Of a stretch of 64,000 bases of DNA, positions 3,170-24,146 are shown in pieces. The translations under genes were made by a program, and so were the position numbers. The stretch lies in IMG/VR virus record IMGVR_UViG_3300044623_001092. The stretch is one strand, 5' to 3'. Every line of letters begins with the position of its first letter. The first letter of the stretch is position 1. The notes under the pieces were generated by a model. That model ran no database searches and had not been told where the DNA came from. It saw only the letters and a list, made by a program, of their open reading frames with translations. Source of the DNA: a virus.

Positions 3170-3394
3170 ATGCCAACGGAAATAATCATAACTTCAGTTT
3201 CAGGTGCCACACCCTTTAATGTTTATATATGTGATGACCCAATTATAACATGTGTATATGTTGATACTATAACAGTTGCCAATATACCATACTCGTTTAA
3301 TGTCCCATCAATATTGGATGGTCAAACGTCGTACAATTTGAAAGTGGTGGATAATAATGGTTGCTCCGTTGAGGAAAATTTAACATTATTATGA
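3170..3394 (+). CDS. small putative virion protein, paralogue of the N-terminal domain of the 2644-aa protein
   Basis: I-I-x-x-G-x-x-P-(F/Y)-x-(V/I)-Y-(I/V)-C-D...C-V...S-F-x-x-P-S-x-x-D...K-x-x-x-x-x-G-C pattern shared with the 6788 ORF. Confidence 0.75.
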   Translation: MPTEIIITSVSGATPFNVYICDDPIITCVYVDTITVANIPYSFNVPSILDGQTSYNLKVVDNNGCSVEENLTLL

Positions 3395-4515
3395 GTTGTT
3401 CTACTGAATATTGTATTAGTAATACTAACCACCCTGAATACGATGATAATTTCACATCAAACGGTGATTATGATGGTTATCCTAGTTGGTCTGGGTTAAC
3501 TAATGGATATTATATATATTTTAATACTACAGGAACACAATGGTGTTTATCCTCATCATTAGGTGGGGCTTGTTTATTATCAGGTAAATCACCGTGTACA
3601 TCAGAGTGTCCCGACTTAAACGGTGCGTATTTTGGTTCTGGTATGTGTTTAACACCTACCCCAACCCCAACGAATAATTGTGATATTTTAAATTTCGAAT
3701 CGTTTTTTGATTGTGAGGTTATACCAACTCCAACACCTACCCCAACTCCGACACAAACCCCTACAATGACTCCAACACCAAGTTCAACAAACTATTGTTC
3801 AATTGTGGAAGTTGTTGCAACAATCAATTCATATTCACCAACACCAACTCCAACACCAACAATTACACCGTCATCTTCAGGGATTATTGAAAGACCTTGT
3901 CATTTTTATGGTGACGCTACTTTCAATACGGTAAACGATATGATTAATTGTCCTATCAGTAAACAATTTCAAGATTGTTATAACGGGACAATGTATTACA
4001 CAACAAATAACGTAACTAACCCATCAGGGGGTGAAATTACTCAATATATGGTCTTTAACTCATTAGTCGATGGGTTAACTAAATGTATATCTTATGTTGG
4101 TACAACGAATCAAATTAGTGGGGTAAATAACATAATTTTAAGTTCAGGTCCTTATGGTTACTCTAACTTAGGAGGTTGTAATTCATGTATACCAACGCCA
4201 ACGCCAACACCTACATCAACAATGACACCAACACCAACACCTTCAATAACACCAACACCTTCAATAACACCAACACAAACTAAAACACCTACCCCAACCC
4301 AAACACCAACAACAACCCAAACACCAACAACAACCCAAACACCAACAACAACACCAACAACAACACCAACCCCAACCCAAACACCAACAACAACCCAAAC
4401 ACCAACAACAACACCAACCCAAACACCAACAACAACCCAAACACCAACCCCAACAACTACCCCAATAGTTCCAATACTTTGTGGTATATCGGGTTACACA
4501 TATGATATTTCATAA
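3391..4515 (+). CDS. Cys-rich, Thr/Pro-repeat (mucin-like) putative virion/fibre protein
   Basis: 374 aa with several (TP)n tracts, a C-terminal TPTTTQ array and Cys-rich globular segments. Confidence 0.75.
   Translation: MSCSTEYCISNTNHPEYDDNFTSNGDYDGYPSWSGLTNGYYIYFNTTGTQWCLSSSLGGACLLSGKSPCTSECPDLNGAYFGSGMCLTPTPTPTNNCDILNFESFFDCEVIPTPTPTPTPTQTPTMTPTPSSTNYCSIVEVVATINSYSPTPTPTPTITPSSSGIIERPCHFYGDATFNTVNDMINCPISKQFQDCYNGTMYYTTNNVTNPSGGEITQYMVFNSLVDGLTKCISYVGTTNQISGVNNIILSSGPYGYSNLGGCNSCIPTPTPTPTSTMTPTPTPSITPTPSITPTQTKTPTPTQTPTTTQTPTTTQTPTTTPTTTPTPTQTPTTTQTPTTTPTQTPTTTQTPTPTTTPIVPILCGISGYTYDIS
4302..4452 (+). repeat. 18-bp tandem repeat (acaccaacaacaacccaa) encoding TPTTTQ
   Basis: Near-exact tandem copies with indel variants visible in the sequence. 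Confidence 0.8.
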
Positions 4516-4537
4516 ACATGAAAAAAATTAATTAAAT

Positions 4538-6736
4538 ATGTCATTTTCAGCATCAACTTGTTTAACTAACACAGGAACAACAACATTAAGTTCTACGTTA
4601 ACAATATACAGTAATCCAATTTCACCAACAAGTCCAGGTACTTATGTAACTACTGTACCAACGACAGATATAACAGGAGGCAACTGTCCTTATACTTTTG
4701 AAGTTCCTGATGGTACGACAATAATAAGATTATCAGACCCAATTAGTGGTTGTTATTGTGATATACCTGTTAGCGATAATAATATGTGTACAACTTGTGA
4801 TTTGAATTTCAATACTTTTACATCCCCATCAGTTGGTAATATTGTTGCTGGTGATATCACAGGAACTTGTGACGCAAGTGTGTCTAACTACTTAATTTAT
4901 TGGTACGATGTAACAGACCCATTAACACCTATTTTCAAATTCAGTTCAGGTAAAGGGTCAATGTTTACACCATACGATAATATACACCCATTAACGGGTA
5001 CATCATCAGTTTTAGCAACATCAGGAACTTATGATGCAATATTGGAAAAAATAGAACTTAATGGTGTTGTTTTTTCAAGAACAGGTGGAACGGGGACTGT
5101 TTTGGCTGATTTAGATTGTTTACCATCAATAATTAACGGTGACCCTTTTGTAATATCAGCATTAAATTGTAGTAATGGTGGTGATAGTTCTAATTTACCA
5201 CAATATGAACATAGATTCGCATATTCAGCAACTACAGGTGGTAATTTACCTACACCATTAAGCACTACATTTGAATTATCCGCAGGTACCAAATACTTCC
5301 CATGGAAATTTCAAGGAAATTCAGTACCCGATAAAATCAAATTAACATTGGTTGCTAACGCTTATGGTGACGTACCAATAATTGTAGATTATTGGGATGT
5401 TGGTGATTTACCAAGTAATAATTCAACTCCAACAATATTTCCTAAATCAGCGGACACTACAAGTTTTTTCAGTAAGATAACCGTTTTAAGTGCGTTTACA
5501 ATAAGTAATGGTGATAATATACTAATTGAGGTGACACCATCAACCGCAAATACACAAACAAGTTGGACATTTTATTGTGGATGTTTAGACGAAATTAATT
5601 GTTTTGATTGTACACCAAGTACAGGTATGACAAGTGGTGGTACAATTAGTTATCAATTCCCTATAAGCGCAACAACATTTACCGCATATACAGGAAGTTG
5701 TAACGCAATTACTATTCAATATAAGGTTTATCAAGATTGTAGTTATTCTAATTGGACCGCTAGTACCGAGTACCAATATATGAATGGTAATGGTATTGAA
5801 CCAAATAATTTAGTTAATAAGTCAGGAACTCTGTATGTTAACTCAGTATCCTGTGGTGTCGCATCAAGCCCGACTTCCTCTCAATCATGTTTAAATTACG
5901 GAGCACCAACCGATATAACATATGAAAAAATACCTGGTTTATTCACCATAACATCCAATAATTCAACAGTTATTAGTGACCATTATAATAGATATATAAC
6001 TGCACTCGTCCCGTATATATCAACATTTTCAGGTGATAATACTAATGTTGGGTATTATAGGCACTTTTACGTAGAATGGCCAACATCAACGGGAATCACT
6101 CCTTGTGGTGATGGTACCACATCAAAAACCCTTCGTATTCATCAATCATCAATTGTAAGTACAGGTATGACAGGTAGTGATTACTACATATCATTCACTC
6201 TACCAACTGTCACAAACGGAATAACATTTACAAGTTGTGATTTAAATTGTAACAACAATGTGAATCAAATGGTAGTAAATATTAACACATCTTCAACAGG
6301 AAGTACTGAAAATTATACAGGAACAACCAATGTTGGTTCTTCATACCAATATGTGTTTTATAACGTTTTTTATTTAACTAGTGGTTCTACGAGTTCAGAT
6401 ACACTCACTGTTGGTTCATTATTGACTTTAGAAAATACTCATAATAACACATATCCCGCATCAGGTGAAACACCAACATTAATACCATCACTTTCGGGTG
6501 TCACATGCCCTAACATATTAAATAATATGAGTATAAGTTCTCCAATTCGTTATATTAAATACACATCCTATTATACTTGTAAGTTAATCAATCCAACAAA
6601 TCCATTGTCAACTGATATTAATATTTTTTCAAATTACATACCTATGAATGGTAATCCCAATCCCACTATACAAACCTTAATTGCTCAATATATTGGTGGT
6701 GTACTGAATATAATTGATTCTGATTATTTCGTGTAA
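4538..6736 (+). CDS. Ser/Thr/Gly/Cys-rich beta-structured putative virion protein (732 aa)
   Basis: Long ORF in the plus-strand island with composition typical of fibre/appendage proteins; no family recognised. Confidence 0.7.
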   Translation: MSFSASTCLTNTGTTTLSSTLTIYSNPISPTSPGTYVTTVPTTDITGGNCPYTFEVPDGTTIIRLSDPISGCYCDIPVSDNNMCTTCDLNFNTFTSPSVGNIVAGDITGTCDASVSNYLIYWYDVTDPLTPIFKFSSGKGSMFTPYDNIHPLTGTSSVLATSGTYDAILEKIELNGVVFSRTGGTGTVLADLDCLPSIINGDPFVISALNCSNGGDSSNLPQYEHRFAYSATTGGNLPTPLSTTFELSAGTKYFPWKFQGNSVPDKIKLTLVANAYGDVPIIVDYWDVGDLPSNNSTPTIFPKSADTTSFFSKITVLSAFTISNGDNILIEVTPSTANTQTSWTFYCGCLDEINCFDCTPSTGMTSGGTISYQFPISATTFTAYTGSCNAITIQYKVYQDCSYSNWTASTEYQYMNGNGIEPNNLVNKSGTLYVNSVSCGVASSPTSSQSCLNYGAPTDITYEKIPGLFTITSNNSTVISDHYNRYITALVPYISTFSGDNTNVGYYRHFYVEWPTSTGITPCGDGTTSKTLRIHQSSIVSTGMTGSDYYISFTLPTVTNGITFTSCDLNCNNNVNQMVVNINTSSTGSTENYTGTTNVGSSYQYVFYNVFYLTSGSTSSDTLTVGSLLTLENTHNNTYPASGETPTLIPSLSGVTCPNILNNMSISSPIRYIKYTSYYTCKLINPTNPLSTDINIFSNYIPMNGNPNPTIQTLIAQYIGGVLNIIDSDYFV

Positions 6737-6787
6737 AAAAGTTCACTATAGGTTTAAATAATTTAAAAATCAACTATTTATTATTGA

Positions 6788-9700
6788 ATGACATCTATTG
6801 AGATTGCTAACATAACAGGGTTATCATATCCCTATCAAATATACGTTTGCGACGTGTTTGGCAATCAGTGCGTACTGATTGCTACGATAAATACGTCAGT
6901 ACCTCCAAGTACTAGTTTCATATTACCAAGTCAATTTGATAATGCGCCAGCCGTCGGAGTTAAAATAATGACAAGTGATGGTTGTGAACGATTTGAAATT
7001 GTTTACTGTAACGTATTGGTTGCAACTCCTACACCTACTCCTACACCAACACCTACACCAACTCCAACACCTACCGTAACTAAAACCCCAACTCAAACAC
7101 CAACAAATACCGTAACACCAACTAACACTTCAACACAAACACCAACGAATGCTATAACACAAACACCAACGAATACTTCAACTCAAACACCTACTAATAC
7201 CGTAACTAATACACCAACTAATACGGAAACTCCAACTAACACACCAACACCCACAGTAACTAATACTGTAACTCAAACACCTACTAATACCGTAACTGAA
7301 ACACCTACTAATACTCCAACAAGTACTGTAACTGAAACGCCCACTAATACTCCTACTAGTACTGTAACTGAAACACCAACTAATACTCCAACGCCAACTA
7401 ATACTGAAACACCGACTAATACACCTACTAATACGGTAACAGAAACTCCTACGAATACCCCGACTAATACTACAACCCCAACATCAACAGTTACTGAAAC
7501 ACCGACTAACACACCAACCAATACCCCAACCAACACTATAACACCAACTGTTACTGAAACGCCAACTAACACTCCGACTAATACTATAACACCGACCGAA
7601 ACACCAACTAACACACCAACTAACACGTCAACAATAACACCATTTAACCCAACTAGTACACCAACATCTACTGTAACTGAAACTCCAACTCAAACACCTA
7701 CTCCTACTGTAACTGAAACACCAACAAATACTCCAACATCAACGGTAACCGAAACACCAACAAATACTCCAACATCAACTGTAACTGAAACTCCTACTAA
7801 CACTCCAACTAACACTCCAACTCCAACCAACACAGAAACCCCTACTAATACGCCAACCTCAACTGTTACCGAAACACCAACACAAACACCTACTAATACT
7901 CAAACCCCAACTAACACAGTTACTCAAACTCCAACAAACACTGTAACACCAACTAACACTTCAACACAGACTCCGACTAACACGCCTACGAATACTCCAA
8001 CGAACACCGTAACTAATACCGTTACTCCAACAAAAACTTCTACGAATACACCAACGAATACCCCAACAAATACGCCTACGAATACTGTTACACCGACAAA
8101 TACTTCTACTCAAACACCAACCAATACATCTACTAACACACCAACGAATACTGTTACACCAACGAATACTTCAACTCAAACTCCGACTAATACTCCCACT
8201 AACACATCTACGAATACACCAACACAAACACCAACGAACACAGTAACTAATACCGTTACTCCGACTAACACGTCGACAAATACTCCAACTAATACACCAA
8301 CAAATACTGTAACTCCAACCAATACTTCTACTAATACGCCTACGAATACTCCAACTAATACAGTGACTAATACTGTAACACCAACAAGGACTTCAACTAA
8401 CACACCTACGAATACTCCAACCAATACTGTAACGTCAACTATTACCCCAACTAATACTTCAACCAACACACCTACAAATACACCTACAAATACGGTTACT
8501 CCAACTAATACTTCAACCAATACTCCGACTAACACACCTACGAATACATCAACAAATACTCCTACAAATACTGTTACTCCAACTAACACACCTACGAATA
8601 CACCTACAAATACTGTTACTCCAACAAGGACTTCAACCAACACACCTACTAATACACCAACAAATACTATAACACCTACTAACACTTCAACTAACACACC
8701 TACAAATACTCCAACGAACACTGTTACACCAACAAGAACTTCAACAAATACTCCAACTAATACACCTACTAACACTGTAACACCAACAAGAACTTCAACA
8801 AATACTCCAACTAATACACCTACTAACACTGTAACACCAACAAGGACCTCTACCAATACCCCTACAAACACTCCAACGAACACTGTTACACCAACTAATA
8901 CTTCAACCAACACACCTACAAACACTCCAACGAACACTGTTACACCAACTAATACTTCAACCAACACACCCACAAACACTCCAACGAACACTGTTACACC
9001 AACTAATACTTCAACCAACACACCTACAAACACATCAACACAAACTCCGACTAACACACCAACAAATACTGTAACACCAACTAACACACCTACTAATACT
9101 TCTACTAACACACCTACAAATACACCAACTAACACACCTACTAATACTCCAACACAAACACCTACTAATACTCCAACGAATACTGTTACACCAACAAGGA
9201 CTTCAACAAATACTCCGACTAATACACCTACTAACACCCCAACGAATACGGTAACACCGACCAATACTGTAACTCAAACACCGACTAATACACCTACAGG
9301 AACTCCATTGGAGACTCCAACAAACACACCAACAAGAACATCAACTAATACCCCTACAAACACTCCAACGAATACTATTACCCCAACTAATACTTCTACT
9401 AACACCCCAACTAATACACCAACAAATACTGTCACATCCACAATTACCCCAACAAATACTTCTACTAATACCCCAACAAACACTGTGACACCAACTATTA
9501 CACCGACTAACACTTCAACAAACACACCTACGAACACTGTAACACCTACAAGAACTTCAACTAATACTCCGACTAATACTTCTACTAACACCCCAACGAA
9601 TACACCTACAAATACTGTTACTCCAACAAGGACTTCAACCAACACCCCAACTAATACACCTACAAATACGGTTACTCCAACAAATACTTCAACCAACACC

Positions 9701-12700
9701 CCTACGAATACTGTAACACCAACAAATACTTCAACTCAAACCCCTACGAATACTGTAACACCAACAAGAACTGCAATGAACACTCCTACGAATACCCCTA
9801 CAAATACTGTTACATCAACTAACACCCCAACGAACACTTCGACTAATACTCCTACGAATACGCCAACAAACACTGTAACATCAACTATAACTCCGACCAA
9901 TACTCCTACGAACACACCAACAAAAACTGTTACACCAACCAATACTTCTACTAACACACCTACAAATACACCGACTAACACCCCAACGAATACTGTAACA
10001 AATACACCTACAAAAACAGTTACCCCTACGAATACTCCTACGAATACTCCAACTAACACACCAACGAATACAGTTACACCAACAAGGACTTCAACAAATA
10101 CTCCAACTAACACACCAACGAATACAGTTACACCAACAAGGACTTCAACAAATACTCCAACTAACACACCAACGAATACAGTTACACCAACAAGGACTTC
10201 TACCAACACCCCTACGAATACACCTACGAATACACTGACACCAACAAGGACTTCAACAAATACTCCAACTAACACACCAACGAATACAGTTACACCAACA
10301 AGGACTTCTACCAACACCCCTACGAATACACCTACGAATACACTGACACCAACAAGAACTTCAACTAACACCCCTACGAATACACCTACGAATACACTGA
10401 CACCAACAAGAACTTCAACTAACACCCCTACGAACACTTCGACTAATACTCCTACGAATACGCCTACGAACACTGTCACACCAACAAGAACCGCAACTAA
10501 TACACCGACTAATACCTCAACAAATACACCAACAAAAACCCCTACACCAACAAAAACCCCAACGTCAACTTTGGGTCTTACAAATTATTTAGCACAACAA
10601 TGTTGCCCAACAACTCAATATTGGACATTACCTAATGGTAGTTTTACCGATTTCTCAACGGCAATACCTTTTGTTGATTGTGAGGACCCTGGAGTTTGTT
10701 ACAGGTCTATAAGAGATGGTGCTATAACACGTTATTGTAATAGTGGTATTACTTTATCAGTAGATTGGACTTACGAAACACAACCTTGCGGAGCGAAAGC
10801 GATTAAATCATTAAGTCCAATTTGTTCTGATAGTTATTGGTATTTTGTACAAAATAATGATTCAACACTTAACGTATATCAAATTGCTGATAATGGTTCT
10901 GGTTATGATATCTACAGTGATGTAGGTTGTTGTTCAGAAACTTATATGTCAGATTTAACTAACTCAACAACAGGAACTACTCCATCATTACCAAACTGTA
11001 ATTTTTCGTACACAGGTTCAGGTTTATTCGATTGGTTTAATCGTATTATTGATTTATCGGGTGATGACCCTAATTTACATTTCTACCCTTACTATAATTC
11101 AGGAACAACACAATGTTTAGTTAGTGGTAACGTTAATACTCAAGTAGTATCAATAACGAATAATTATTCTCCGTTGAATAAGACAGTTAAACTAAGTGAT
11201 GGTAATTGTTATAATATTATTTCAATTACAGGTGAAACGTCAACAACTACTTGGGTTCCACCAACATTATATAATGATTGTTTAACTTGTTCATTAACAA
11301 TTACTCCAACACCAACAAGAACCAATACACCAACACCGACTAAAACCCCAACACAAACACCTACAAACACTATCACACCAACTAAAACACCTACAAATAC
11401 CATTACACCTACAAACACTCCAACGAATACTTCTACGAATACCGTTACACCGACTAATACACCAACCAATACTGTAACTCCAACAAGAACACCGACTAAT
11501 ACTCCAACCAATACCGTAACTCCAACAAGAACACCGACTAATACTCCAACTAATACACCAACTAATACACCAACAAGAACCGCAACTAACACGCCTACAA
11601 ATACTGTTACACCAACAAGAACTGCAACGAACACTCCTACGAATACACCTACGAATACTATAACCCCAACTAATACTCCTACGAATACTGTAACACCAAC
11701 CAATACCCCAACGAACACTTCGACTAATACTCCTACGAATACACCAACAAGAACTGTTACACCAACAAGAACCCCGACTAATACGCCAACTAACACACCT
11801 ACAAATACTCCGACAAATACTGTTACACCAACAAGAACTGCAACGAACACTCCAACAAGAACCGCAACTAATACACCAACGAATACTGTTACTCCAACAA
11901 GAACCGCAACTAACACTCCTACAAACACCGTTACACCAACCCAAACAATTACCCCAACCCCAAACCAAACTTGTTTTACATACCCATCAGACCAAACTAA
12001 TATCATAATACCATCATCAGGTATTTCATCTGTTTACCCAATAACATTTACTATTTCAGGTTTAGTTACTGCAATTAGTGATGTTAAAATAACATTAAGT
12101 GGATATTCCCACACCTCAGTCGGAGATGTCGGTATGTTATTGGTAGCACCTGACAATACAAGTTGGTCATTACTATCAGGTAGAGTTGGAGCGGTTAATA
12201 ATGCGGTTAACGCTAACGTAACCTTAACAAGTTTTAGTTCACCAACATGGAATGGATATAGTTCAGGAACATTTAAAAATAATACATTGGTCGGTAACTC
12301 AATGCCATTCTCAGCACCATGTCCAACAACATTTGTTACGGGTAACTCACCTGAATTTACAATTTTTGATGGGTTACAACCACCTGTTTCAAATGGTCTA
12401 TGGAAATTATATATTCAAGATTTCTCAGTTATAGATTCTGGTACATTATCAGGAGCAACATTGGTTATTTGTTCTGAAAATACAACACCTACACCAACAC
12501 CAACTAATACTGTTACACCAACAATTACCCCGACTAATACGCCAACTAACACACCAACAAGAACTGTAACTCCAACAATAACTCCAACTAATACACCAAC
12601 AAGAACTGTAACACCAACAAGAACTTCAACTAATACTCCAACTAACACGCCGACAAACACTCCAACAAATACAGTTACACCATCTATAACACCAACCAAT

Positions 12701-14722
12701 ACCCCAACTAACACACCAACAAGAACTGTAACTCCAACAAGAACCCCAACTAATACTTCAACTAACACGCCGACAAACACACCAACTAATACAGTTACAC
12801 CAACAAGAACCCCGACTAATACGCCAACTAACACACCAACAAGAACCGCAACTAACACGCCGACAAATACTGTTACACCTACAAGAACCGCAACTAACAC
12901 GCCGACAAATACTCCAACAAATACAGTTACACCATCTATAACACCAACCAATACCCCAACTAACACCGTAACAAGAACTGTAACACCAACAAGAACTCCA
13001 ACTAATACTTCAACTAACACGCCGACAAACACACCAACTAATACAGTTACACCAACAAGAACCCCGACTAATACGCCAACTAACACACCAACAAGAACCG
13101 CAACTAACACGCCGACAAATACTGTTACACCTACAAGAACCGCAACTAACACGCCGACAAATACTCCAACAAAAACTGTTACACCATCTATAACACCAAC
13201 TAACACACCTACTAACACCGTAACAAGAACTGTAACACCAACAAGAACTCCAACTAATACTCCAACATCAACAGTTACACCGACAAGAACACCAACGAAT
13301 ACTCCAACACCTACTAAAACACCTACTCCAACACCAACATCAACATGTTTTAGTTATACTTTAGTTGGTACAGGTCGTTCAGGTGGTCAGTTCACATTTA
13401 CACCTTGTTGTACTAACGTTTATAATTCACCTGTTACTTTGAGTGCTGAGGATGGAGTATCAACAACTCAAGTATGTTCAAGTACATTACCTGTTTTATC
13501 AAGTGGTGGAGGAACAATCACGTTAAATGGTACATGTGATTATTGTGGTGATTGTTATTGTTTTGATTTGGCGGGTGGTGGATATACTTATATTGATTGT
13601 TCAGGGACAACACAAACTATTTTGACGTTGGCGACTACTGTATGTTCATCAAGTTATGTAGTACCAGATAGCTTTTCATCATCTTTCTCTAGAAGAGGAT
13701 TCTGTAGTGGTGGTATATGTCCAACACCAACACCTACACCAACACCAACGCCGACCATAACTGTTACACCGACAAGTACTTGTATTGGATATAACTTAAC
13801 TTACAACGGTGCTGAGTTAGGGTCATCAAGTGTTGCTTTTACACCATGTTGTAGTAATTCAACTGTGAATCCACGAGGGATGGGAATAGAAAGACCTTTT
13901 TTCTCAATTTGTTCAACAACTACACCTGTCGTTACTAATCTTAATGGTGGTAGTGTCTCAGTAGTTTCAACAGGTGTTTGTCCATGTACTACACCTACAC
14001 CAACACCAACAGTCACACCAACTAAAACAAATACACCAACACCCTCAGTTACTCCTAATTTTGTATCTGCGAATTTAATGATTCATTATGATTATAATAA
14101 TACATCATCATACGTTGGGACAGGTACATTAGTTAACGATTTAACGTCCGATAATATTACATCAACATTAACAGGCGGACCAACATTCAGTGGGTCACCA
14201 TTTGGTGTTATGAATTTTGATGGTGCTGGCGACCATACCTCATCCATCCAAAACGCCAATCTGTCAGCAATAACTAGCACGGTAACTTGTGAAGTATGGG
14301 TAAGACCTATTGATGTAAGTTTAGGTTCTGAAAAACAATTAGTAAATTATAATAATAACTTAGGTTTCAGAGCTAGAATAAACACAGATGGTTCAGTTGA
14401 AGCTATATATAACAACGGTGGAAGTGTCGATACCCTTCTAACCAGCCCTTCTTTAATTTTAAGTTCTACATGGTACCAAATAACTGTTGTATACCAAAAC
14501 ACATTGGTGAGTATTTACAAAAATGGGGCATTAGTAACCTCAGTTTTTGGATTAGGATTAAGCATGAACGCAACAAACACTAATATTCAATTTGGAAGAA
14601 TGTCTCCAGGTACTGAATGGTTTAAAGGTGGTTTAGGTATAATGAGAGTGTATAACTCAGCATTATCGGCAGCACAAGTCTTACAAAATTTTAATTTTAA
14701 TAGAGGAAGATTTGGTATATAA
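6788..14722 (+). CDS. giant mucin-like fibre/adhesin (2644 aa): N-terminal domain, three T/P/N repeat arrays, Cys-rich domains, proprotein-convertase P-domain-like module, C-terminal LamG/ConA-like domain
   Basis: P-domain-like signature [20 protein letters not shown]...[10 protein letters not shown]....DSGTL; LamG signature MNFDG.GD...T.EVWV...WYQITVVY....IYKNG...FKGGLG.MRVYN.ALS..QV.QNF. Confidence 0.85.
7024..10570 (+). repeat. coding low-complexity array 1 ([12 protein letters not shown] units)
   Basis: About 1180 codons of degenerate 12-bp-based repeats; exact 54-bp tandem at 10043-10200. Confidence 0.9.
11302..11965 (+). repeat. coding low-complexity array 2 (TPTN/TRTA units)
   Basis: Visible in translation and DNA. 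Confidence 0.9.
12482..13345 (+). repeat. coding low-complexity array 3 with a 252-bp higher-order repeat
   Basis: tccaacaaa...acaccatctataacacc recurs at 12661, 12913 and 13165. Confidence 0.85.
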
Positions 14723-14737
14723 GGATATTTATATAAT

Positions 14738-14986
14738 ATGTTCGAAAATAGAGTATTTATAATAATTTCAACCGTTGAAATTCCATTTATTAATTTTGAA
14801 GAGATTTTATTCAAATCTTACAATGACCTTATTTTGTCGGTGAACAAAACTAAAACAATTTTAAAATGGGATGGTCCTACAACACCATCATTTTACGATA
14901 ATTTAAATACTAAGGAAGGTCCATATACTATTAGTGAGATTACTCAAATTTTGTCAACACCTGAATGGTACATAGAAAGTAATTAA
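14738..14986 (+). CDS. hypothetical protein (82 aa), possible fibre accessory/chaperone
   Basis: Preceded by TATTTATA (14726-14733) and follows the fibre gene; function inferred from position only. Confidence 0.65.
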   Translation: MFENRVFIIISTVEIPFINFEEILFKSYNDLILSVNKTKTILKWDGPTTPSFYDNLNTKEGPYTISEITQILSTPEWYIESN

Positions 14987-15011
14987 AAAAAAAGGGAAGT
15001 AATAACTTCCC
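14985..15011 (-). terminator. intrinsic terminator between convergent transcription units
   Basis: GGGAAGT-AATA-ACTTCCC hairpin with an A-run on the left (U-tract on minus strand). Confidence 0.7.
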
Positions 15012-15035
15012 CATAACATTTTAATATTTAATTTT

Positions 15036-15648: not shown

Positions 15649-18135
15649 TTAAAAATCAAATTTTATTACAAACTGTTGAATTCCGAGCCGTGGCGTAGGA
15701 GATTGTAGTTTAGATATAATCATAAGGTCGTCGTTCAAATCGTAAAGACCAATTTCAGTAATATATAGTTGATTACCATTTACCCAACCAGGATTTGAAC
15801 TTGCTTGGAACTCAGCATCACCCAAATTGATTTTATATCTCATTTCATATATTGTTGCTTGTACGTCAGTTTCAACAGTACCATAGAAGTAATATTCATC
15901 ACCAAAGTTTAGTTGGTGACCACTAAATCCAAGTGGTGTTAATTCAATATAATCCGATAAATCATATGATGGGGCGGCATCATATAAATCTTTACTAATA
16001 ACAAAAGTAGTACCTGTTAATCCATCTGCCGTAATATAACCATTAATCGTTGTCGCCGATAATATATCGGTATAATCAATAACTTTCCATTCAGTAGGGT
16101 CAGGTCTACCATCACCAATTACTTTTTGACAAATAATTTCAAATTTATCAGCAAAGAATCCTGTCGATAAATCGCATACATCAGGACAAAGTGTTGTACT
16201 CGTTGTTGTGTAAACACTTGTGGTTGTTGTTGTAATAACACTTGTTGTTGTTGTAGTCGTAGATGGTGAATACGATTTATAATTTAAACAATTAAATTCG
16301 GACCCAAATCTTACTGAGACATTTTGAGGTCCAATGTCTAAACAAGATAAATTAGGTCCTTGTATTTTAGTATAATAGTTACAATGTAACGAATTTGTAA
16401 AAGAATATTGATTACCCAATCTATAAGTAATGTATAAGTACTCAGTATTACCCGTTAAAATCCCCTCACTTGATTGATTTGATGGTCCACAAGTGTTTGG
16501 CGTAGTTAACCCTACTTTAGGAGCTGGTAACGTCCAATTTCGGTTTGATTTATATGATAACGATGCAATAATTTCTTCATCATCAATAATAACAATTTTA
16601 TGGTCAGGAAATACCTTACCAATTCTATTCGGTAAACCATTAATACTTGGGTTATCATCCCATAAATGATAATAACGAATACCAGGTGTGTTCATATCAA
16701 GGTTTTTCTTAGACTCAATATAGCTAGGCTGAAATAAGTCAAAATCCTCAAACCCTGGAGGGTCTACCCAAAATGTTTGTCCTTGACAACAATCAGGATT
16801 TTTATGCCACATCAATGATGGTAAACTAATTTTGAAGTTTCTTGCTTGTCCAACAGTATCTTCAGGTAATGTTGGGTCTAAAGGTTGTAACGCAAATTTT
16901 TCACCATAATAAAAATCAATTGTCTGATTGGTATAATGAATAATAGCAATTGCCTTTTGTTCTTCAGGTTGGACCTTAACAATCTCACTAAATGAATTAT
17001 AATAATATGTATCGGTCGTTTCAGCACTTAAAGTTGGGTCAACGTAGAATGTTTGACCTGAACTTGATTGATACCCTAAATATTCTTTAGTACCCACATA
17101 TTGTGCGGAACCAAACTTAGAAAAACCTTTAACAACATCACCATCTAATCCAGCTAAATCTTCTGACCAAGGAATATTCATATTCCATATCTTAACATCC
17201 AACTCATCAGTATCACATAACGATTCAAAATTAATAACATCAGTATTGTAATGATTTAATGGTGTAACACTATCATATAGGTTAGTCATATTAGGTGGGT
17301 AAATAATAGTTCTAGCGTAACACACACTTAATAAATCACCATAATCAGGTGTTGGTCTGTCTAACGTAATCTCGTTATTACAAACATCTAAAATTCTATA
17401 AGTTAAAATACCATAACAACTAAACATGCTCATACCACAATTAGGTATATCAACAGGTGTTGGTGTTGGGAATACCGTAGTTGTTGTTGTCGTAGTATCA
17501 CACGGTAAAGTTGTTGAGGTTGTCGTAGTTGGCGATAAGGTAGTTGTTGTTGTTGTTGTAGTCGATGTTGTACCACATCCACAATCATTTTTAGCTCGAC
17601 CATCAAAATAAATTGTGATTAAATCACCAGCCTGTGGTAATCTTGCTATATTTGTATTACAACCTGAATAAATAACAGTAATCACATCACTACCTGTTAA
17701 TGTTGACATATCAATCATGTAGTTAGAATTAATAACATGTTGATTATCCGTAAACGCACTCCAATATGTAAAGTTGTCTAACGTAATTCCTGTGAAGAAA
17801 CCTCTCGGTTCCGCTCTGTTATAGACAGGACTATCAATCGAATCCATATATGGTATACCATACGTATTACCTGTAAATCCTTTTACATAATACGGATATT
17901 TAATATTCTGTTTGTTTGATTGGGGAGCCCCACTTGAATTCTGAGCATTAAATGCTGGTTCCAATATCATCGTCTCTAATTGATTGTATGATGTTGGTAA
18001 GACATTATAAGAAACCTCACTATCACCAATTTGGAAATAAGATATGTTAAAATTACCTTGTGATAATTTTTCTCTCCCCGTATCAGTTAATCTACTGTTA
18101 ATTAACGCTGATGTATTTTTTAATATATAACTCAT
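15649..18135 (-). CDS. baseplate/tail-collar fibre-attachment protein with Thr-rich inserts
   Basis: N-terminal LTDTGREKLSQG....YFQIGD and C-terminal ITEIGLYD...LMIISKL..P resemble tail-collar fibre (DUF3751-like) halves; two poly-Thr tracts. Confidence 0.6.
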   Translation of the reverse strand: MSYILKNTSALINSRLTDTGREKLSQGNFNISYFQIGDSEVSYNVLPTSYNQLETMILEPAFNAQNSSGAPQSNKQNIKYPYYVKGFTGNTYGIPYMDSIDSPVYNRAEPRGFFTGITLDNFTYWSAFTDNQHVINSNYMIDMSTLTGSDVITVIYSGCNTNIARLPQAGDLITIYFDGRAKNDCGCGTTSTTTTTTTTLSPTTTTSTTLPCDTTTTTTTVFPTPTPVDIPNCGMSMFSCYGILTYRILDVCNNEITLDRPTPDYGDLLSVCYARTIIYPPNMTNLYDSVTPLNHYNTDVINFESLCDTDELDVKIWNMNIPWSEDLAGLDGDVVKGFSKFGSAQYVGTKEYLGYQSSSGQTFYVDPTLSAETTDTYYYNSFSEIVKVQPEEQKAIAIIHYTNQTIDFYYGEKFALQPLDPTLPEDTVGQARNFKISLPSLMWHKNPDCCQGQTFWVDPPGFEDFDLFQPSYIESKKNLDMNTPGIRYYHLWDDNPSINGLPNRIGKVFPDHKIVIIDDEEIIASLSYKSNRNWTLPAPKVGLTTPNTCGPSNQSSEGILTGNTEYLYITYRLGNQYSFTNSLHCNYYTKIQGPNLSCLDIGPQNVSVRFGSEFNCLNYKSYSPSTTTTTTSVITTTTTSVYTTTSTTLCPDVCDLSTGFFADKFEIICQKVIGDGRPDPTEWKVIDYTDILSATTINGYITADGLTGTTFVISKDLYDAAPSYDLSDYIELTPLGFSGHQLNFGDEYYFYGTVETDVQATIYEMRYKINLGDAEFQASSNPGWVNGNQLYITEIGLYDLNDDLMIISKLQSPTPRLGIQQFVIKFDF

Positions 18136-18155: not shown

Positions 18156-19628
18156 TTATTCATACAACGATTGATTAAGAACACTACAACAATTACAACC
18201 TGTAATGCTAGCGTTAGTAACAAACGAATTAGTGGTAGCAAAATTAGCACTACAACAACCACTACCAGTTGCCGTCACACCATATTTTAATGGCCCAAGA
18301 GGTCCATCACCCAAATCAACGTTATCATACTCATTTGGTAATGGTGTTGGTTCAGGTGTTTGACTTTCAAATAATGCTTGTGGTGGTGGTGGATTATTAC
18401 ATGTTAACAGATAATCAGTTATTAACTTAATACTATAAACATCCGTTGAATTAATAGTTAAGTCAGTATAGTTACGATTAAAATTCGTCTGATACTTCAA
18501 ATAATTAGTACAACCTGGTGTCGTATTAGCAACCGTTGTTACGACATCATTATCAACACTTGGTATTGTTAAACCATTTTTAATAATTTCTGTGGTATAC
18601 GATTTAGTTGCCGAATTAAGATAAGGCGTTTGAGTAAACATTCCAGAAAAATCCATATTAAACTTAATTGTTGTTCCATCATTAGGTAATGATGGTGTAA
18701 TATTTACAACATACGTATATTCGTAAGATGTACTAGATACCTGAACCGTAGAAAATATATTCATTGATATAGTATAAACCGTCATAGGTTCACTAGTGAA
18801 TATTACATTACCTGATTGAGATGATACAATTGTACCTTCACTATCCTTAATTTGAGGTGTAAAAGTCACATCAGGACATAAGTTATTGAATAATGGATTA
18901 CTCACCCATGTTGTTCCCCCATTTACCGAATATTGATATGGTGGTACACCTCCAAGACCTTGTATTGTTATTGAAGCATCACAACTTGTACATGATGGGT
19001 TATTTTTAGTTACCATTAATCTTAAATTACCAACATTAACACATTCACCTTCAGTTACAGTTACAGTACCTTGATTACCCAACATTAACCACCCACTTAA
19101 TGGTGGATAGGTAGGGTCGTTATTAATAACCGTTAAATTATTTACAGTATCAACCAACTCCCAACGATTATCAACGTTATCCCAAACGATGGTATATAAA
19201 ACATCATCTGAAATCCAACTTTGTTTACCATTCACAATCCCATTAGGATTAAAATAAATAGATAAATCAACCACACTATCACCTTTAAAATAATGAATAA
19301 CCATACAGAAATCATACGTAATAATTGGTGATGTTGTTGTTGTTGTAGTTGTTGTTGGGACAACAGGCCCTGTTAATACACAAGTAGTATTTGCAGTAAA
19401 ATCACCATAATAATCAACAATCGTTGCAGGATACGAACCTGCCGATAAATTATTAATTGCAAATGAACTATTACCATTTTCCCAAGTAATATTGTAAGGT
19501 GGTGTTCCACCTGTAACAATTAAAGTTGCAGTACCATTAGACGCATTCTGTCCACTAGGATTAGTTACTTGACACGCAACCCCAAGTGGGAATATTACTA
19601 TAGGTTGACACTCATTATTTTCAGGCAT
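18156..19628 (-). CDS. SprB-repeat putative virion protein with Thr tract
   Basis: NG.ATL.VTGGTPPYNITW.NG......NLSAGSY...IVD and GGVPPYQYSVNGG repeats; PTTTTTTTTSP. Confidence 0.75.
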   Translation of the reverse strand: MPENNECQPIVIFPLGVACQVTNPSGQNASNGTATLIVTGGTPPYNITWENGNSSFAINNLSAGSYPATIVDYYGDFTANTTCVLTGPVVPTTTTTTTTSPIITYDFCMVIHYFKGDSVVDLSIYFNPNGIVNGKQSWISDDVLYTIVWDNVDNRWELVDTVNNLTVINNDPTYPPLSGWLMLGNQGTVTVTEGECVNVGNLRLMVTKNNPSCTSCDASITIQGLGGVPPYQYSVNGGTTWVSNPLFNNLCPDVTFTPQIKDSEGTIVSSQSGNVIFTSEPMTVYTISMNIFSTVQVSSTSYEYTYVVNITPSLPNDGTTIKFNMDFSGMFTQTPYLNSATKSYTTEIIKNGLTIPSVDNDVVTTVANTTPGCTNYLKYQTNFNRNYTDLTINSTDVYSIKLITDYLLTCNNPPPPQALFESQTPEPTPLPNEYDNVDLGDGPLGPLKYGVTATGSGCCSANFATTNSFVTNASITGCNCCSVLNQSLYE

Positions 19629-19653: not shown

Positions 19654-20643
19654 TCAGTTATTCCGTTTTTGTTGAATTAACGACTTCATAACTTCAATAT
19701 ATTTTATGGTTGAACTATTCTTTTCAATAAAATCAAAATAATTAGGGTCACTTTCAATCTTTTTTAAGGGGTCCTCATTAATATATTCCCCTTTATAAAA
19801 TTTCCTATCTTTTAAATCTTGAGTCACTCCCGCCATATGAAGAATTGGTTTCTTTTCATATATTACAATATCATCTGTCGCCCATGAAAAATCTAATTCT
19901 TTTGTTATTTTAGTTTCTTTACCAAAATACCATAGATTCCATAAGACCGACCACATTTCCGCAGTCCAAAATTGTATTTCACCAGGACTGATTGGGTATC
20001 GTTTTTGATAACTCATCATTTGGTCATATAATGGAACACAATCATTATATATCTTTTCCCACATCTTAGCGTCAGTGTCTTTAATAATATATTGACCACC
20101 ACCCGAATTCTCTTGATTACATTTAACACATTCAACATCAACACCAATAACATCAACCATTTCTTGAATCAATTGACCTTTATTTGAATTGGGGTGTTGT
20201 TGCTCATATCTTTCACAACAATCCATAATATAGTTATAACCAATATAACCCACAGTATCCGATACATATGTTATGTCATCATCTAATAACGCTTTAAAAT
20301 CAGGTAATTCTCTAAAGATGATATCAGCGTCATGTAAAAAAAATGACTTACCATATTGTGGATTCTCCACCAACCATTTATAGATTAAAAATGGTTTAAT
20401 ATTTGGTATATAATGTTTTCGTTCTCTATCATCTAAATAATGATGAACATTAATTCCTAATTTTTTTAATTCTAAAGATTCTTCACTAGGTTCTTTTTTA
20501 CCCTGAACCATTGCTAGCACAACATGAATATTATTGGGGTTAATACCTTTCTCGATGAAATTATGTACATAAACCTTAATTTGCCAATGAAAATATGGGA
20601 CATCAGGTTGTGCTGAAACAAATACTAAATTATTAAAATCCAT
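19654..20643 (-). CDS. GT-A fold glycosyltransferase, HPAT/peptidyl-serine galactosyltransferase (GT95/GT96)-like
   Basis: Ordered motifs YFHWQ, YIPNIKPF...KWL, HDADIIF (DxD), GGGQYII, WTAEMW, ILHMAG. Confidence 0.7.
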   Translation of the reverse strand: MDFNNLVFVSAQPDVPYFHWQIKVYVHNFIEKGINPNNIHVVLAMVQGKKEPSEESLELKKLGINVHHYLDDRERKHYIPNIKPFLIYKWLVENPQYGKSFFLHDADIIFRELPDFKALLDDDITYVSDTVGYIGYNYIMDCCERYEQQHPNSNKGQLIQEMVDVIGVDVECVKCNQENSGGGQYIIKDTDAKMWEKIYNDCVPLYDQMMSYQKRYPISPGEIQFWTAEMWSVLWNLWYFGKETKITKELDFSWATDDIVIYEKKPILHMAGVTQDLKDRKFYKGEYINEDPLKKIESDPNYFDFIEKNSSTIKYIEVMKSLIQQKRNN

Positions 20644-20703: not shown

Positions 20704-21243
20704 TTATGCGATAGTTGTTGTAGTTGTAGTAATTTGGTTAAAATTAGGTATTGTTGATTGTTCAAACTGTTCATCCATAAGTAACACCATAACATTTTTA
20801 ACACAACACATTACTTCCGCCTCCAAGACCTGGTATTCTTCAGCAATTGTTATGTCAAAAGTACCGTCACCATAATCAACGGTAAAACTAAGAGTGTCCT
20901 GACCCCCACTTATATTTGGAATAATTAAGGTTTCATTTTGAACACCTGTTTGGGGGGTACAAATCATCATATTCCAAAAAACCAAATATTTTTTATGATA
21001 ATCCAAATAACACACTTCCCAAAAATCAATATAAATTTTCTGTTCGAACTCAGGCTCACATGGTTCTCCAGAAATACAAACAGATGTCACATCAATATAA
21101 TTACTAAACGACTTAAAAAACGCATTTTTAGTTTCGGTTGCGGTAGTATACATGTTTTCCCAAGTTGAGCAATCCGATTCAGTTGTTCCTGTTCCGAATA
21201 TCCCTAAGTTAATATAATCACAATTATCGTAAAAAAATGCCAT
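20704..21243 (-). CDS. hypothetical protein with C-terminal Thr tract
   Basis: 179 aa, acidic and Cys-containing, ends ITTTTTTIA. Confidence 0.65.
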   Translation of the reverse strand: MAFFYDNCDYINLGIFGTGTTESDCSTWENMYTTATETKNAFFKSFSNYIDVTSVCISGEPCEPEFEQKIYIDFWEVCYLDYHKKYLVFWNMMICTPQTGVQNETLIIPNISGGQDTLSFTVDYGDGTFDITIAEEYQVLEAEVMCCVKNVMVLLMDEQFEQSTIPNFNQITTTTTTIA

Positions 21244-21254
21244 ACATAATAAAA

Positions 21255-24146
21255 TTAAAATTTATATTTAAATATTTGATATAATGGTGCGTGAAATGTC
21301 GCCCAAGTAAATGGTTTCCAAGCAAGTAACAATTCATTTAATGCTTTAAAATAAGCTTGAGATTGACTTCTTTGTGCAAAATCACAATCCTCAATATCAG
21401 GATAACCAATTATCACAGTACCATAAGGTGTCCAAGTATTAGTATTTGGGTCCCACTGATAAAAAAGATTATCATCTATAACAAAACAAAACGTACCAAA
21501 GTTGCTAGTTAACGGTAAATCACCATATGATTGTACCTCAGTCAAATATACTATATCAAAATCATATTGAGGCCCGATAAGACCTTCATCAGCAAATATT
21601 TTTTTACAACTACATCCTTGTAATACGTTAAATTTATACCAACCAATATTATTTTGTCCATAATCATAAAAATCAAATTCTTCGGCCGATGGTGGTAATA
21701 CAACCGTTAAATTTTCCGCGGCAGTTATAAGACCGTAAGTAAGGTATCCATTATACTCATTTTGATATTTAAGGTAAGCCATTCTAATTTGTTGGAATTG
21801 TTGTTCAACACCAGGAATTACACCTTGACAATCGTTAGGATTATAAAAAGGTAATTCAGTACATCTACTAGGGATGAAATCCGAATCACTTAGGTAATCC
21901 GCCCCAAAATAATTCCAAGTTATCGGAGAAATAACTTTAGTATCAGTAGTTTCACAATATTCATTAGTTATTTCACAATTTATCGGTATAAATTCAGGAG
22001 TATAACATCCTGTACACAATTCACATGATATATCATAATATATAACCATATTAATCACAACATCAGCGTCATTTAACGATACTATACTATTACAATCGGT
22101 TGTTATAGTCATTTTATTTTCTTCAACATCGAAGGTAACCGAAGCTATCCCATCATAACTAAGTAACATAGACTCAATAACATCATCCCACTCATTCACC
22201 GTTGGATATTCATTTAATGTAGTTCCTGTATAAAATTCTTGGGTTGTCGTCACACCACTAACGGTTACTGAAGCTTCAAATATAGATTGATTTAAAACAC
22301 AATTAAATTCATTTAGAGTCAACTCATAAAACCCTTCCAATAACATTTGTTTAGGTCCTTTAGTTAATAACTCACCATAATTAGATAAATCAGAGTCACA
22401 CACATTATAAACTTGATATGACGATACAAATACATTACCATCAATAGTTACCGTTCTAATTTTCTCACAATCATTACTATCAACAACCTTTAATGTGTAA
22501 GTTCCCGCAGATAAATTATTAACAGTCATACCTGTTTGACCATTTACGTTTGAACTCCACGTTAACACGAATGGTGGTATTCCACTCGTTATTAGTGCGG
22601 TAATGGTCCCATTATTACCAACCGTTGAATCAGTTGACGTTAATATAAAATCAACCCCACTAGATATGTTTACACTATCAACAATTGTTTGAGTACAACC
22701 ATTGTTATCCGTTACGTCAACACTATGAATTCCAGAAGATAAATTGGTGAAGGTATGGGAAGTTAATGAAGTAATTACTATTTCATCCCCATCTAAAGTA
22801 TAGGTATAATTAGGTGAACCTCCCGATATTATAACCTCAAAAACACCGTTATCATTACCACATGTTGTTCCTGTAACGTTTGAAGATAAATTAAACGTAT
22901 TATCATTTTCAATAGTAAATGAATTGGTATAGTCACAAGGCCCATTATCAGTAATGGATATGGTATAATCACCATAGGTCAAATTATTAAACGTCCATGT
23001 GGTACTTGGAAGTGTTTGGGTTGTTGTTGTACCTCCAACTTTAGTTAGTGTATAAACATATGGAGGTGAACCACCATTTAAATTCATTGTCACAAAACCC
23101 GAAGACCCACAAACAGAAGGTGAATACGAAAAAGACACCACCGAGAATCCACCTGGAGTTAATAAAGTAGCAATTCCCGACGCGGTACATAGACCTGAAT
23201 CCGTAATTAAAATATTATAATTACCACTTGAGACATTTGTAAATGTATATTCAGCGTCAAAAGTAAAATAATTACCAATTGATGATGCTGAAAAGTTATA
23301 AGGTGCGGTACCACCCGTTACCACAACTGTAATTTCACCATCAGAACTATAACAAGATGGGTCAGTAGTTAATATTGTTGCAATTCCAAGTGGGGGCACT
23401 TGACTAACCAAAGTCGTCTTACTAACAGAACAACCTGTATTATCCGTTACCGTAACATTGTATCCACCTGTTGTTAAACCTGTTAATGTTGAACCTGTAG
23501 TTCCATTTGACCATAAATAAGTGTAAGGTGGGTTACCCGTTAAACCCGTGATAAAAATTTTACCTGAATTAACCGCACAACCCGCATCATTAACCACATA
23601 AAATCCATAGTCAACTGTATTTGAGTCTTGTATAATAATCGTTTCACTTTTACCCGTACAACCACCACCATCATCAGCAACAACATAATAAGTACTAGCA
23701 GATAAATTAGTGAACTCGAAAGTCTCATACGTAGTTAATGCCGAAGTTATAAAACCATTATCGTAGTCGTATAAGTAAAATATCGCATTCCCAAACATAT
23801 TCGTAGTTGTTGCAGTAACACTACCGTTATCATTACCACATAAAGTATTAGTAAACCCATCCACTGAAACACAAGTACCACTTGATATATAAACGTTAAC
23901 AGGTATTACTGTATTTATTGGGTTACAACTATCAATAATTGTAAATGAATATGTGGATGCCGATAAGTCAGTTACCGTATATTCAGTAACACCTACACCT
24001 AACGCTATCGTACCATAAGAAGAAGGTGTTAACCATTGTATAGTATAATCAGGAGCAGTCCCCGTAATTTCGATAGTAAACGCCCCGCTATTAGTATTCG
24101 AACAATCACCTGTAATACTTAAACTATATGAAAGAGGACAAGCCAT
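21255..24146 (-). CDS. multi-SprB-repeat putative virion adhesin/fibre protein
   Basis: About 7 repeats of C....G.I.....GG..PY.Y.W.......NL..G.Y...V.D..GC. Confidence 0.8.
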   Translation of the reverse strand: MACPLSYSLSITGDCSNTNSGAFTIEITGTAPDYTIQWLTPSSYGTIALGVGVTEYTVTDLSASTYSFTIIDSCNPINTVIPVNVYISSGTCVSVDGFTNTLCGNDNGSVTATTTNMFGNAIFYLYDYDNGFITSALTTYETFEFTNLSASTYYVVADDGGGCTGKSETIIIQDSNTVDYGFYVVNDAGCAVNSGKIFITGLTGNPPYTYLWSNGTTGSTLTGLTTGGYNVTVTDNTGCSVSKTTLVSQVPPLGIATILTTDPSCYSSDGEITVVVTGGTAPYNFSASSIGNYFTFDAEYTFTNVSSGNYNILITDSGLCTASGIATLLTPGGFSVVSFSYSPSVCGSSGFVTMNLNGGSPPYVYTLTKVGGTTTTQTLPSTTWTFNNLTYGDYTISITDNGPCDYTNSFTIENDNTFNLSSNVTGTTCGNDNGVFEVIISGGSPNYTYTLDGDEIVITSLTSHTFTNLSSGIHSVDVTDNNGCTQTIVDSVNISSGVDFILTSTDSTVGNNGTITALITSGIPPFVLTWSSNVNGQTGMTVNNLSAGTYTLKVVDSNDCEKIRTVTIDGNVFVSSYQVYNVCDSDLSNYGELLTKGPKQMLLEGFYELTLNEFNCVLNQSIFEASVTVSGVTTTQEFYTGTTLNEYPTVNEWDDVIESMLLSYDGIASVTFDVEENKMTITTDCNSIVSLNDADVVINMVIYYDISCELCTGCYTPEFIPINCEITNEYCETTDTKVISPITWNYFGADYLSDSDFIPSRCTELPFYNPNDCQGVIPGVEQQFQQIRMAYLKYQNEYNGYLTYGLITAAENLTVVLPPSAEEFDFYDYGQNNIGWYKFNVLQGCSCKKIFADEGLIGPQYDFDIVYLTEVQSYGDLPLTSNFGTFCFVIDDNLFYQWDPNTNTWTPYGTVIIGYPDIEDCDFAQRSQSQAYFKALNELLLAWKPFTWATFHAPLYQIFKYKF

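Follow-up and report, generated by a model that had tools for sequence, protein, structure and literature searches.

A 64,000-nucleotide stretch of viral DNA (IMG/VR virus record IMGVR_UViG_3300044623_001092), hereafter the window, i.e., the whole stretch that was analysed, carries as its longest open reading frame (ORF) a plus-strand gene at positions 6788–14722, which starts with ATG and encodes 2644 amino acids (aa) plus a stop codon, with no internal stop. Judged from its sequence, the product appears to be a modular protein of phage attachment or decoration; giant spacers with threonine at every other position take the place of the shaft, and two uncharacterised domains, designated D1 and D2, are included. 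There is about an even chance that it acts as a modular surface adhesin of a large tailed phage, docked through D1, in which spacers carry exchangeable binders, and which is encoded by a fast-evolving host-range cassette. The window itself is phage DNA, as evidenced by a baseplate wedge gene (phrog_219), a ribonucleotide reductase gene and a DnaB-like helicase gene, in line with an earlier note on the sequence, which had taken the protein for that of a phage.

The earlier note had described the product as beads on a string with about 1700 residues of T/P/N arrays. This anatomy is borne out, in that folded domains lie between three (T-X)n arrays which make up 1699 of the 2644 residues and which, moreover, follow a strict alternation of T-X dipeptides. 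Array 1 (7022–10573, plus strand) spans residues 79–1262 (1184 aa), array 2 (11303–11968, plus strand) residues 1506–1727 (222 aa, practically a single uninterrupted run) and array 3 (12467–13345, plus strand) residues 1894–2186 (293 aa). Residues inside (T-X) runs number 1173 of 1184, 220 of 222 and 281 of 293 for arrays 1, 2 and 3, respectively, and the longest run without a break comprises 552 residues. Across the whole protein there are 967 T, 363 P and 340 N residues, together 1670. The arrays themselves are ~49–50% Thr, with the partner residue X following the order P > N > S, V > R, and Pro, as the most frequent partner, amounting to about 18% and put at roughly every fourth residue. 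They exhibit neither a heptad nor a beta-helix pattern, and the frequent Pro in the T-X alternation is expected to preclude both a sheet and a compact fold, leaving a stiffened hydrophilic chain.

The DNA of the arrays is mostly old and codon-diversified, the repeat rows that Tandem Repeats Finder reports for array 1 showing 57–89% matches, while tandem units correspond to 18 aa and multiples thereof. A young 54-bp (18-aa) tandem repeat is present in array 1 (10055–10437, plus strand; 7.1 copies, 89% matches), and a 252-bp repeat in array 3 (12639–13266, plus strand; 2.5 copies, 96%). The region of the latter harbours the longest exact repeat of the gene, which measures 176 bp; repeated 101-mers are absent outside positions 10043–13073, and repeated 127-mers outside 12746–13047.

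The arrays were compared with other assemblies by means of 11 contigs, derived from JGI, ENA and Logan samples, on which the neighbouring 732-aa protein is letter-identical. One of these, a 12.7-kb contig from another sample, the lake sample JGI 3300034095 (L085), covers the whole gene at 99.8% identity over 8.7 kb and holds an intact ORF of 2560 aa, while a second (L088) covers the first 1111 codons and is 100% identical over window positions 4409–10108, except at 8609–9208. Repeat units differ between strains or assemblies: L085 has exactly one 252-bp unit fewer in array 3, and in L088 units have been gained or lost within the latter interval, with a net difference of 54 nt in array 1. Seven further contigs with the neighbouring gene end within array 1, at window positions 7062–8215, which indicates that short-read assemblers are prone to break there. 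Since L085 and, as far as it extends, L088 reproduce the gene, the arrays are not the assembly artefact that the earlier note had considered as a way in which its reading might fail; they are real to within a few per cent, any uncertainty or polymorphism being confined to how many copies of the youngest units there are. In public records, including that of L085, gene callers have put antisense ORFs of 117–362 aa in place of the giant plus-strand ORF, and the exact 2644-aa protein was not found in a collection of 15 billion proteins. Such antisense ORFs within the arrays (e.g., 8176–9264, minus strand) are composition artefacts. As arrays break short-read assemblies and are mis-called in antisense, genes of this type are systematically under-reported.

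The N-terminal 78 residues (6788–7021, plus strand) constitute D1, a conserved domain delineated by tblastn and alignment, and a putative virion anchor. Its distribution was analyzed in 80 loci, fetched from the 497 IMG/VR relatives (contigs of up to 322 kb) of an 828-aa backbone gene (15649–18135, minus strand) that adjoins the plus-strand island containing the giant gene. D1 was detected by tblastn in 59 of the 80 loci, always at the extreme N-terminus of its ORF, and it possesses three invariant cysteines (C21, C28 and C66). In each of the 36 relatives that were aligned, the homologous N-terminus begins with residue 1 and exhibits no hydrophobic leader, and neither a signal peptide nor a membrane segment was found, confirming what the earlier note had said of the missing signal peptide. 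D1 returned no Pfam match at E <= 1 and no PHROG match, and an hhalign comparison with the SprB units of the window aligned the expected motifs at a probability of 2.5%.

D1 occurs in two forms, the first being a free-standing gene of 71–112 aa, whose ESM Atlas neighbours are exclusively viral clusters with no Pfam family. In its second form, D1 is the head of longer proteins, of 252, 343, 373, 636–641, 727, 879, at least 1356, 1750 and 3005 aa, and a profile search returned 38 more (203–1544 aa), some of which carry DUF285 (BspA-type repeats), PF17164, PA14 with cEGF, or PF07603. For example, the 1750-aa proteins of loci L003 and L004 are composed of D1, 808 residues of T-X array, a Cys module, 116 array residues, a P-domain, 210 array residues, and Cys modules plus LamG, while the 3005-aa protein of L005 consists of D1, 92 array residues, a Cys module, 1132 array residues and then six more modules, with LamG last. 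At the other end of the range, a 252-aa protein (L027) consists of D1 and an array, no binding module being recognisable in it, and a 636-aa D1 protein (L034) has no array. Array length among orthologues thus extends from 0 to more than 1100 aa. Taken together, these comparisons show that the window gene is not a one-off; it belongs to a large, D1-headed family of modular, putatively adhesive proteins found across a clade of large phages.

A recurrent short motif, of the form hydrophobic-LLQ-E/D ... LQ-E/D-G ... I-E, or FQDG..F.FMD...Y.FQ, was observed at the C-termini of L027, L041 and L044, in P0006, P0007 and P0009, and in the tails of the ~100-aa free-standing D1 genes (columns 85–107 of alignment A2). 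Closing many proteins with D1 or T/P linkers, it may represent a docking peptide.

Among the 81 D1-clade loci compared, the window protein has the largest array content; it is not the record-holder among viral contigs, others of which bear arrays exceeding 4000 residues. L173 holds an ORF that is nearly pure (T-X)n and, with both ends open, extends over at least 4628 aa, and L126 also bears a much larger (T-X)n gene. On the 155-kb contig IMGVR_UViG_3300008108_000023 (L213 plus L214, bases 99690–83585, minus strand), a 4248-aa ORF combines a 90-aa N-domain with 662 and 3426 array residues, and is followed, after a frame change, by a 1169-aa stretch with three Cys modules. These giant-array proteins have other small N-terminal domains, which implies that the design arose or spread beyond the D1 family, and an 11-residue peptide (letters not shown) is encoded in at least 119 IMG/VR stretches.

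The six globular segments were all compared with Pfam, and PHROG families were also searched. Of the folded parts that the earlier note had read from the letters, this domain search confirmed the P-domain-like module and the LamG lectin-like tip; the Cys-rich domain and the small Cys modules, at residues 1263–1505 and 2187–2400, respectively, lack a known family. The former, D2 (10574–11302, plus strand), is a Cys-rich alpha/beta domain of ~243 aa for which no known fold is detectable; its family is rare, and it matched neither a Pfam nor a PHROG family. When 1.84 billion representative proteins were searched exhaustively with HMMER, only seven real relatives emerged; none was found in viral_contigs or metagenome_contigs, in cultured phages (tblastn), or in the 1454–4627-aa band of a word-indexed protein database. 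One protein (P0036) is 92% identical to D2, on a 1.3-kb fragment which is uninformative on array length, and on a crAss-like contig D2 occupies the C-terminus of a 780-aa protein, encoded beside a gene for a tail-collar fibre and those for the crAss ring proteins. A single-sequence AlphaFold run gave a predicted local distance difference test (pLDDT) score of 32 and was replaced by an AlphaFold2 run with eight sequences, a shallow alignment, which yielded an alpha/beta model with a pLDDT of 85.6 and a predicted template modelling (TM) score of 0.79. This model found nothing above TM 0.22 in the PDB (Foldseek); against 48,161 PDB representatives (VIA-align) the best match, at Z 5.0, was to designed helical cages and at noise level; and against the BFVD viral models there was no hit at E <= 0.001, the best having E 0.014 at TM 0.20. 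D2 is therefore a rare domain and, as far as a model from so shallow an alignment can suggest, possibly a new fold.

D3 (11969–12466, plus strand; residues 1728–1893) is a proprotein-convertase P-domain-like beta-sandwich, which matches PF01483 (P_proprotein) with 27.4 bits (cut-off 21) and E 3.8e-6 in a partial alignment to profile positions 10–65 of 86. It is bordered by (T-X)n arrays on either side, and the Pfam scan of the six globular segments returned neither a peptidase S8 catalytic domain nor any other peptidase family, indicating that the P-domain is a free-standing beta-sandwich. Its copies in orthologues are 87% identical in L006, 67% in L003 and L004, and 54% in L005. D4 (13346–13732, plus strand) comprises two small Cys-rich modules, with homologous modules located before LamG in L003 and L005, and D5 (13781–13987, plus strand) adds a further such module, a paralogous copy of D4's first half (E 0.006); these small modules matched no Pfam or PHROG family. 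The C-terminal D6 (14060–14719, plus strand; residues 2425–2644) is a LamG/concanavalin-A-like jelly roll, matching PF13385 (Laminin_G_3) over profile positions 5–150 of 151 with 72.4 bits (cut-off 27.6) and E 6e-20. A further match is to phrog_8510 (‘virion structural protein’, E 8.8e-18), and by tblastn D6 shares 28–32% identity with structural proteins of two phages, namely a 233-aa ‘structural protein’ of Flavobacterium phage immuto, encoded between tail-fibre genes, and a protein of Synechococcus phage S-PM2 that is annotated as ‘virion structural protein’. Among solved structures, no sequence relatives were found for the P-domain, LamG, the 828-aa backbone protein or a 329-aa protein described below.

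Comparison of related loci reveals that the modules have been exchanged. The closest backbone, that of L006 (84% identity in the 828-aa protein), retains the P-domain and has different modules where the window has D2 and D4–D6. In P0035, D1 (36% identity) is followed directly by D2, with no array, and then by DUF285 repeats, while P0033 joins the N-module of the window gene at 3391–4515 to a T/P linker, D2 (60% identity) and Fib_succ_major. In L052, D1, the D2 protein and a relative of the 732-aa protein are three separate adjoining genes inside a co-oriented structural block. The junctions of these rearrangements are T/P tracts. The distal modules belong to binding types, and their exchange resembles that of receptor-binding domains.

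Upstream of the giant gene, in the same orientation, lie a 374-aa gene (3391–4515, plus strand), whose N-module is 61% identical over 269 aa to that of P0033, and p732 (4538–6736, plus strand), which encodes the 732-aa protein and whose relative accompanies the D1 and D2 genes in L052; downstream is an 82-aa ORF, p82 (14738–14986, plus strand), conserved only beside the orthologues in L003, L004 and L005. Such island genes are patchy (of the 80 loci, 6 have p732 and 3 have p82) and the flanking genes are conserved, a RuvC-like gene being found in 78 and a primase gene in 51 of the 80. On this sequence evidence, the locus exhibits what looks like the pattern of a hypervariable specificity cassette. 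Phage attachment proteins are classically laid out with a conserved N-terminus ahead of binding modules that vary at the distal end, and here the distal modules differ among loci even at 84% backbone identity, with D1 kept in the 59 loci mentioned above. The combination of a conserved D1 and variable distal modules fits a virion-anchored adhesin.

The plus-strand island (3391–14986) converges on a minus-strand structural block, with a terminator-like hairpin between the two (14993–15012). The block includes the baseplate wedge gene and SprB-repeat proteins, and such repeats also occur in neighbours of the relatives. SprB-type repeat proteins at 18156–19628 and 21255–24146 (both minus strand) are present in 80 and 79 of the 80 loci, respectively, and poly-Thr inserts (e.g., runs of 8–10 Thr), a tract type that differs from (T-X)n, occur in the structural-block proteins at 15649–18135, 18156–19628 and 20704–21243 (all minus strand). 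The SprB-type repeat is the repeat of the Flavobacterium gliding-motility adhesin. Together with phage immuto as the nearest cultured relative, these repeats indicate a Bacteroidota host, which is thus the probable host of this phage. The nearest relatives, immuto and an uncultured 484-kb phage, are distant; 20 kb of the window gave no megablast match to cultured phages, nor did the 828-aa protein give a tblastn match. The window contains no tRNA genes that could serve the Thr-rich arrays, and promoter-like sites are no commoner in it than in shuffled sequence. The so-called moraphages, 25 genomes of which are published, are freshwater phages with genomes of up to ~307 kb, predicted Bacteroidota/Flavobacteriia hosts and four core groups of glycosyltransferases (PMC12619734). 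The lineage of the window may belong to them, the likeness being limited to freshwater habitat, size (the contigs of up to 322 kb among relatives) and predicted Bacteroidota host; threonine tracts are not mentioned in that paper.

In the proposed mechanism, D1 would dock the protein on the particle, be it at the tail, the baseplate or the head, and the three arrays would act as long, Pro-stiffened, hydrophilic and non-compact spacers that present the binders, i.e., D2, the P-domain-like sandwich, the small Cys modules and the terminal LamG domain. These binders may make the first, reversible and multivalent contacts with glycans or proteins of the host surface, and contacts made via tethered modules would give the virion a wider capture radius. 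In addition, the arrays may double as junctions for module exchange and as substrates for the gain and loss of units.

With regard to the reach of such spacers, the 1699 array residues have a contour length of ~530–610 nm (0.31–0.36 nm per residue). For array 1 (~400 nm contour), a worm-like chain gives a root-mean-square span of ~28 nm at an assumed persistence length of 1 nm and of ~90 nm at 10 nm. The earlier suggestion that the arrays could extend over hundreds of nm therefore stands for contour length; it does not stand for reach, as a flexible chain would span tens to ~100 nm on average. Given these small spans, hundreds of nm should be regarded as an upper bound, which would be approached only under heavy glycosylation or flow.

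Several observations weigh against the D1-docked adhesin. The free-standing D1 genes of 71–112 aa are more in keeping with a role in decoration or as a cement than with that of a fibre anchor. Beyond weak hits to the LamG part there is no match to a tail-fibre family, the sole one being to phrog_8147 (‘tail fiber protein’, E 0.0034). The protein contains 40 Cys residues, which would imply disulfides that are unable to form in the cytoplasm before lysis. Furthermore, P0035 and L034 fare well with a short linker or none, so that array length may not matter, and the 329-aa protein that is discussed next as a candidate glycosyltransferase matches no Pfam family (17 homologues scanned) and no solved structure.

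A glycosylated form of the adhesin was also considered. The arrays are probably substrates of phage-encoded O-glycosylation, with two leads in gene neighbourhoods. A conserved 329-aa core gene in the structural block (19654–20643, minus strand; phrog_4417) encodes a protein which was found in 63 of the 80 loci at 55–87% identity, which is better conserved than its structural neighbours, and in which an H-D-A-D motif with invariant H104, D105 and D107 follows a hydrophobic strand. In one cluster of its Atlas neighbours, 10% of the members carry PF23452 (HPAT), and the protein is a candidate, and as yet only a candidate, for a GT-A-type glycosyltransferase. A metagenomic family of 1460–1650-aa proteins was observed to share an N-terminal domain of ~650 aa, T/P linkers and two LamG domains. 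The gene of one member, P0009, a LamG/TPT-linker relative on a phage-like ENA contig (L001), adjoins genes for GT2, GT4, UDP-glucose dehydrogenase and an epimerase. Phage enzymes are known to glycosylate virions in mycobacteriophages (as cited in PMC12619734) and XacN1 (PMC5852040). The likeness to these systems is that phage glycosyltransferase genes accompany glycosylated structural proteins, as the candidate enzyme here is encoded in the structural block; the difference is that in mycobacteriophages it is the subunits of the capsid and tail tube that bear the glycans, at their short C-terminal tails, whereas the putative substrate here consists of thousand-residue arrays. It is conceivable, and put forward tentatively, that such proteins are ‘viral mucins’ of a clade of large freshwater phages, in which cytoplasmic phage glycosyltransferases would decorate D1-anchored arrays to form glycosylated hairs or tentacles with exchangeable lectin-like tips, D2 being one such module, while the array DNA would serve as the recombination substrate for shuffling the modules. 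The mucin-like character ascribed to the protein in the earlier note holds for its composition, with Pro/Thr/Ser-rich tandem repeats, and fails for entry into the secretory pathway, for which a signal peptide would be needed.

Of the alternatives to a D1-docked adhesin with functional spacers, the one that survives best accepts the adhesin and takes its spacers to be neutral, i.e., the arrays would be a run-away expansion of linker DNA prone to slippage or recombination, with no benefit of length. The direct adjacency of D1 and D2 homologues in P0035, the wide range of array lengths among orthologues, and the young units (96% and 89%) with their unit-sized polymorphism, a sign of ongoing expansion, are all in accordance with this idea. 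It is nevertheless considered doubtful, given that old, codon-diversified array DNA keeps the T-X pattern for up to 552 residues with neither a frameshift nor a stop, which speaks for purifying selection to preserve the peptide pattern, and that long arrays recur in independent lineages with other N-terminal domains.

Scarcely less doubtful is a protective or colloidal brush, in which a virion-bound, hydrophilic and possibly glycosylated coat would protect the particle against proteases, grazers, the defences of the host or non-specific sticking, the modules being secondary. Against it, the protein carries five or six folded modules, two of them of a carbohydrate-binding-type fold, and they are swapped between close relatives in the manner of specificity determinants, not of a passive coat. 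What speaks for a brush is the L027 protein, in which D1 and an array stand without a recognisable binder, the arrays of 3400–4400 residues with only small end domains in other phages, the free-standing D1 genes, which suggest a decoration protein, and the glycan shield on mycobacteriophage virions (as cited in PMC12619734).

It is decidedly unlikely that the product is a non-virion protein, released at lysis or acting in or on the infected cell through binding of matrix polysaccharide, cell aggregation or as a decoy. The island is indeed transcribed opposite to the structural block and lies beside replication genes (primase and exonuclease), as such a role might predict, but the protein lacks a signal peptide or membrane segment, the D1, D2 and p732-like genes of L052 are located within the structural block, and relatives of D2 and LamG are encoded among tail genes. 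Finally, the notion that mis-assembled repeats produced the array length or the open frame merits very little credence and is already largely refuted, since, for all that seven contigs stop inside array 1 and the 252-bp unit holds a 176-bp exact repeat, L085 is near-identical with its frame intact, L088 is identical outside one indel zone, and orthologues from other metagenomes carry arrays of 600–1130 aa.

If the D1-docked adhesin is indeed located on the particle, its attachment device would be a long polymer tether with several small binders, a principle unlike that of rigid trimeric fibres, and models of adsorption kinetics and host range would change for abundant freshwater phages of Bacteroidota. 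The family furthermore constitutes a natural case of domain shuffling at low-complexity linkers, and provides a candidate substrate for the glycosylation of proteins by phage enzymes, together with two directly testable domains, D1 and D2.

Literature searches on phage Thr/Pro arrays, mucin-like phage proteins and LamG receptor-binding proteins yielded no description of the family. Its closest counterparts in layout are the modular receptor-binding and tail-fibre proteins of phages, with which it shares a conserved N-terminus, swapped distal modules and a gene neighbourhood of baseplate and fibre type; it differs from tail fibres in having no beta-helix, coiled-coil or collar shaft, the place of which is taken by ~1700 non-folding (T-X)n residues. 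Thr/Pro alternation joining folded binding modules is likewise found in the Pro/Thr linkers of bacterial and fungal glycoside hydrolases, in cellulosomal proteins and in the PTS domains of mucins, all of which are O-glycosylated and extended. The hydrolase and cellulosomal linkers measure tens of residues and belong to secreted proteins, whereas the arrays described here comprise up to 1184 residues, have Asn as a major partner, occur without a signal peptide and carry glycans only putatively.

A small anchor with outward adhesion modules is also a feature of decoration proteins such as T4 Hoc and T5 pb10, with Ig-like modules on the phage surface; such proteins are non-essential, variable and proposed to provide weak surface adherence. 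The idea of weak adherence is also cited in PMC5259590. By comparison with Hoc and pb10, no Ig-like domain was detected in the window protein, D1 has no detectable relation to their anchors, and the scale is ten times larger. In terms of morphology, the jumbo myovirus vB_PcaM_CBB has been reported to bear flexible tail ‘hairs’ of ~119 nm with tiny terminal globules, for which the genes are unidentified (PMC5259590). CBB is an unrelated enterobacterial phage with no known sequence link to the window protein; as a morphological precedent only, these hairs are nevertheless the nearest, as they display the shape that is to be expected of a protein composed of spacers and globules.

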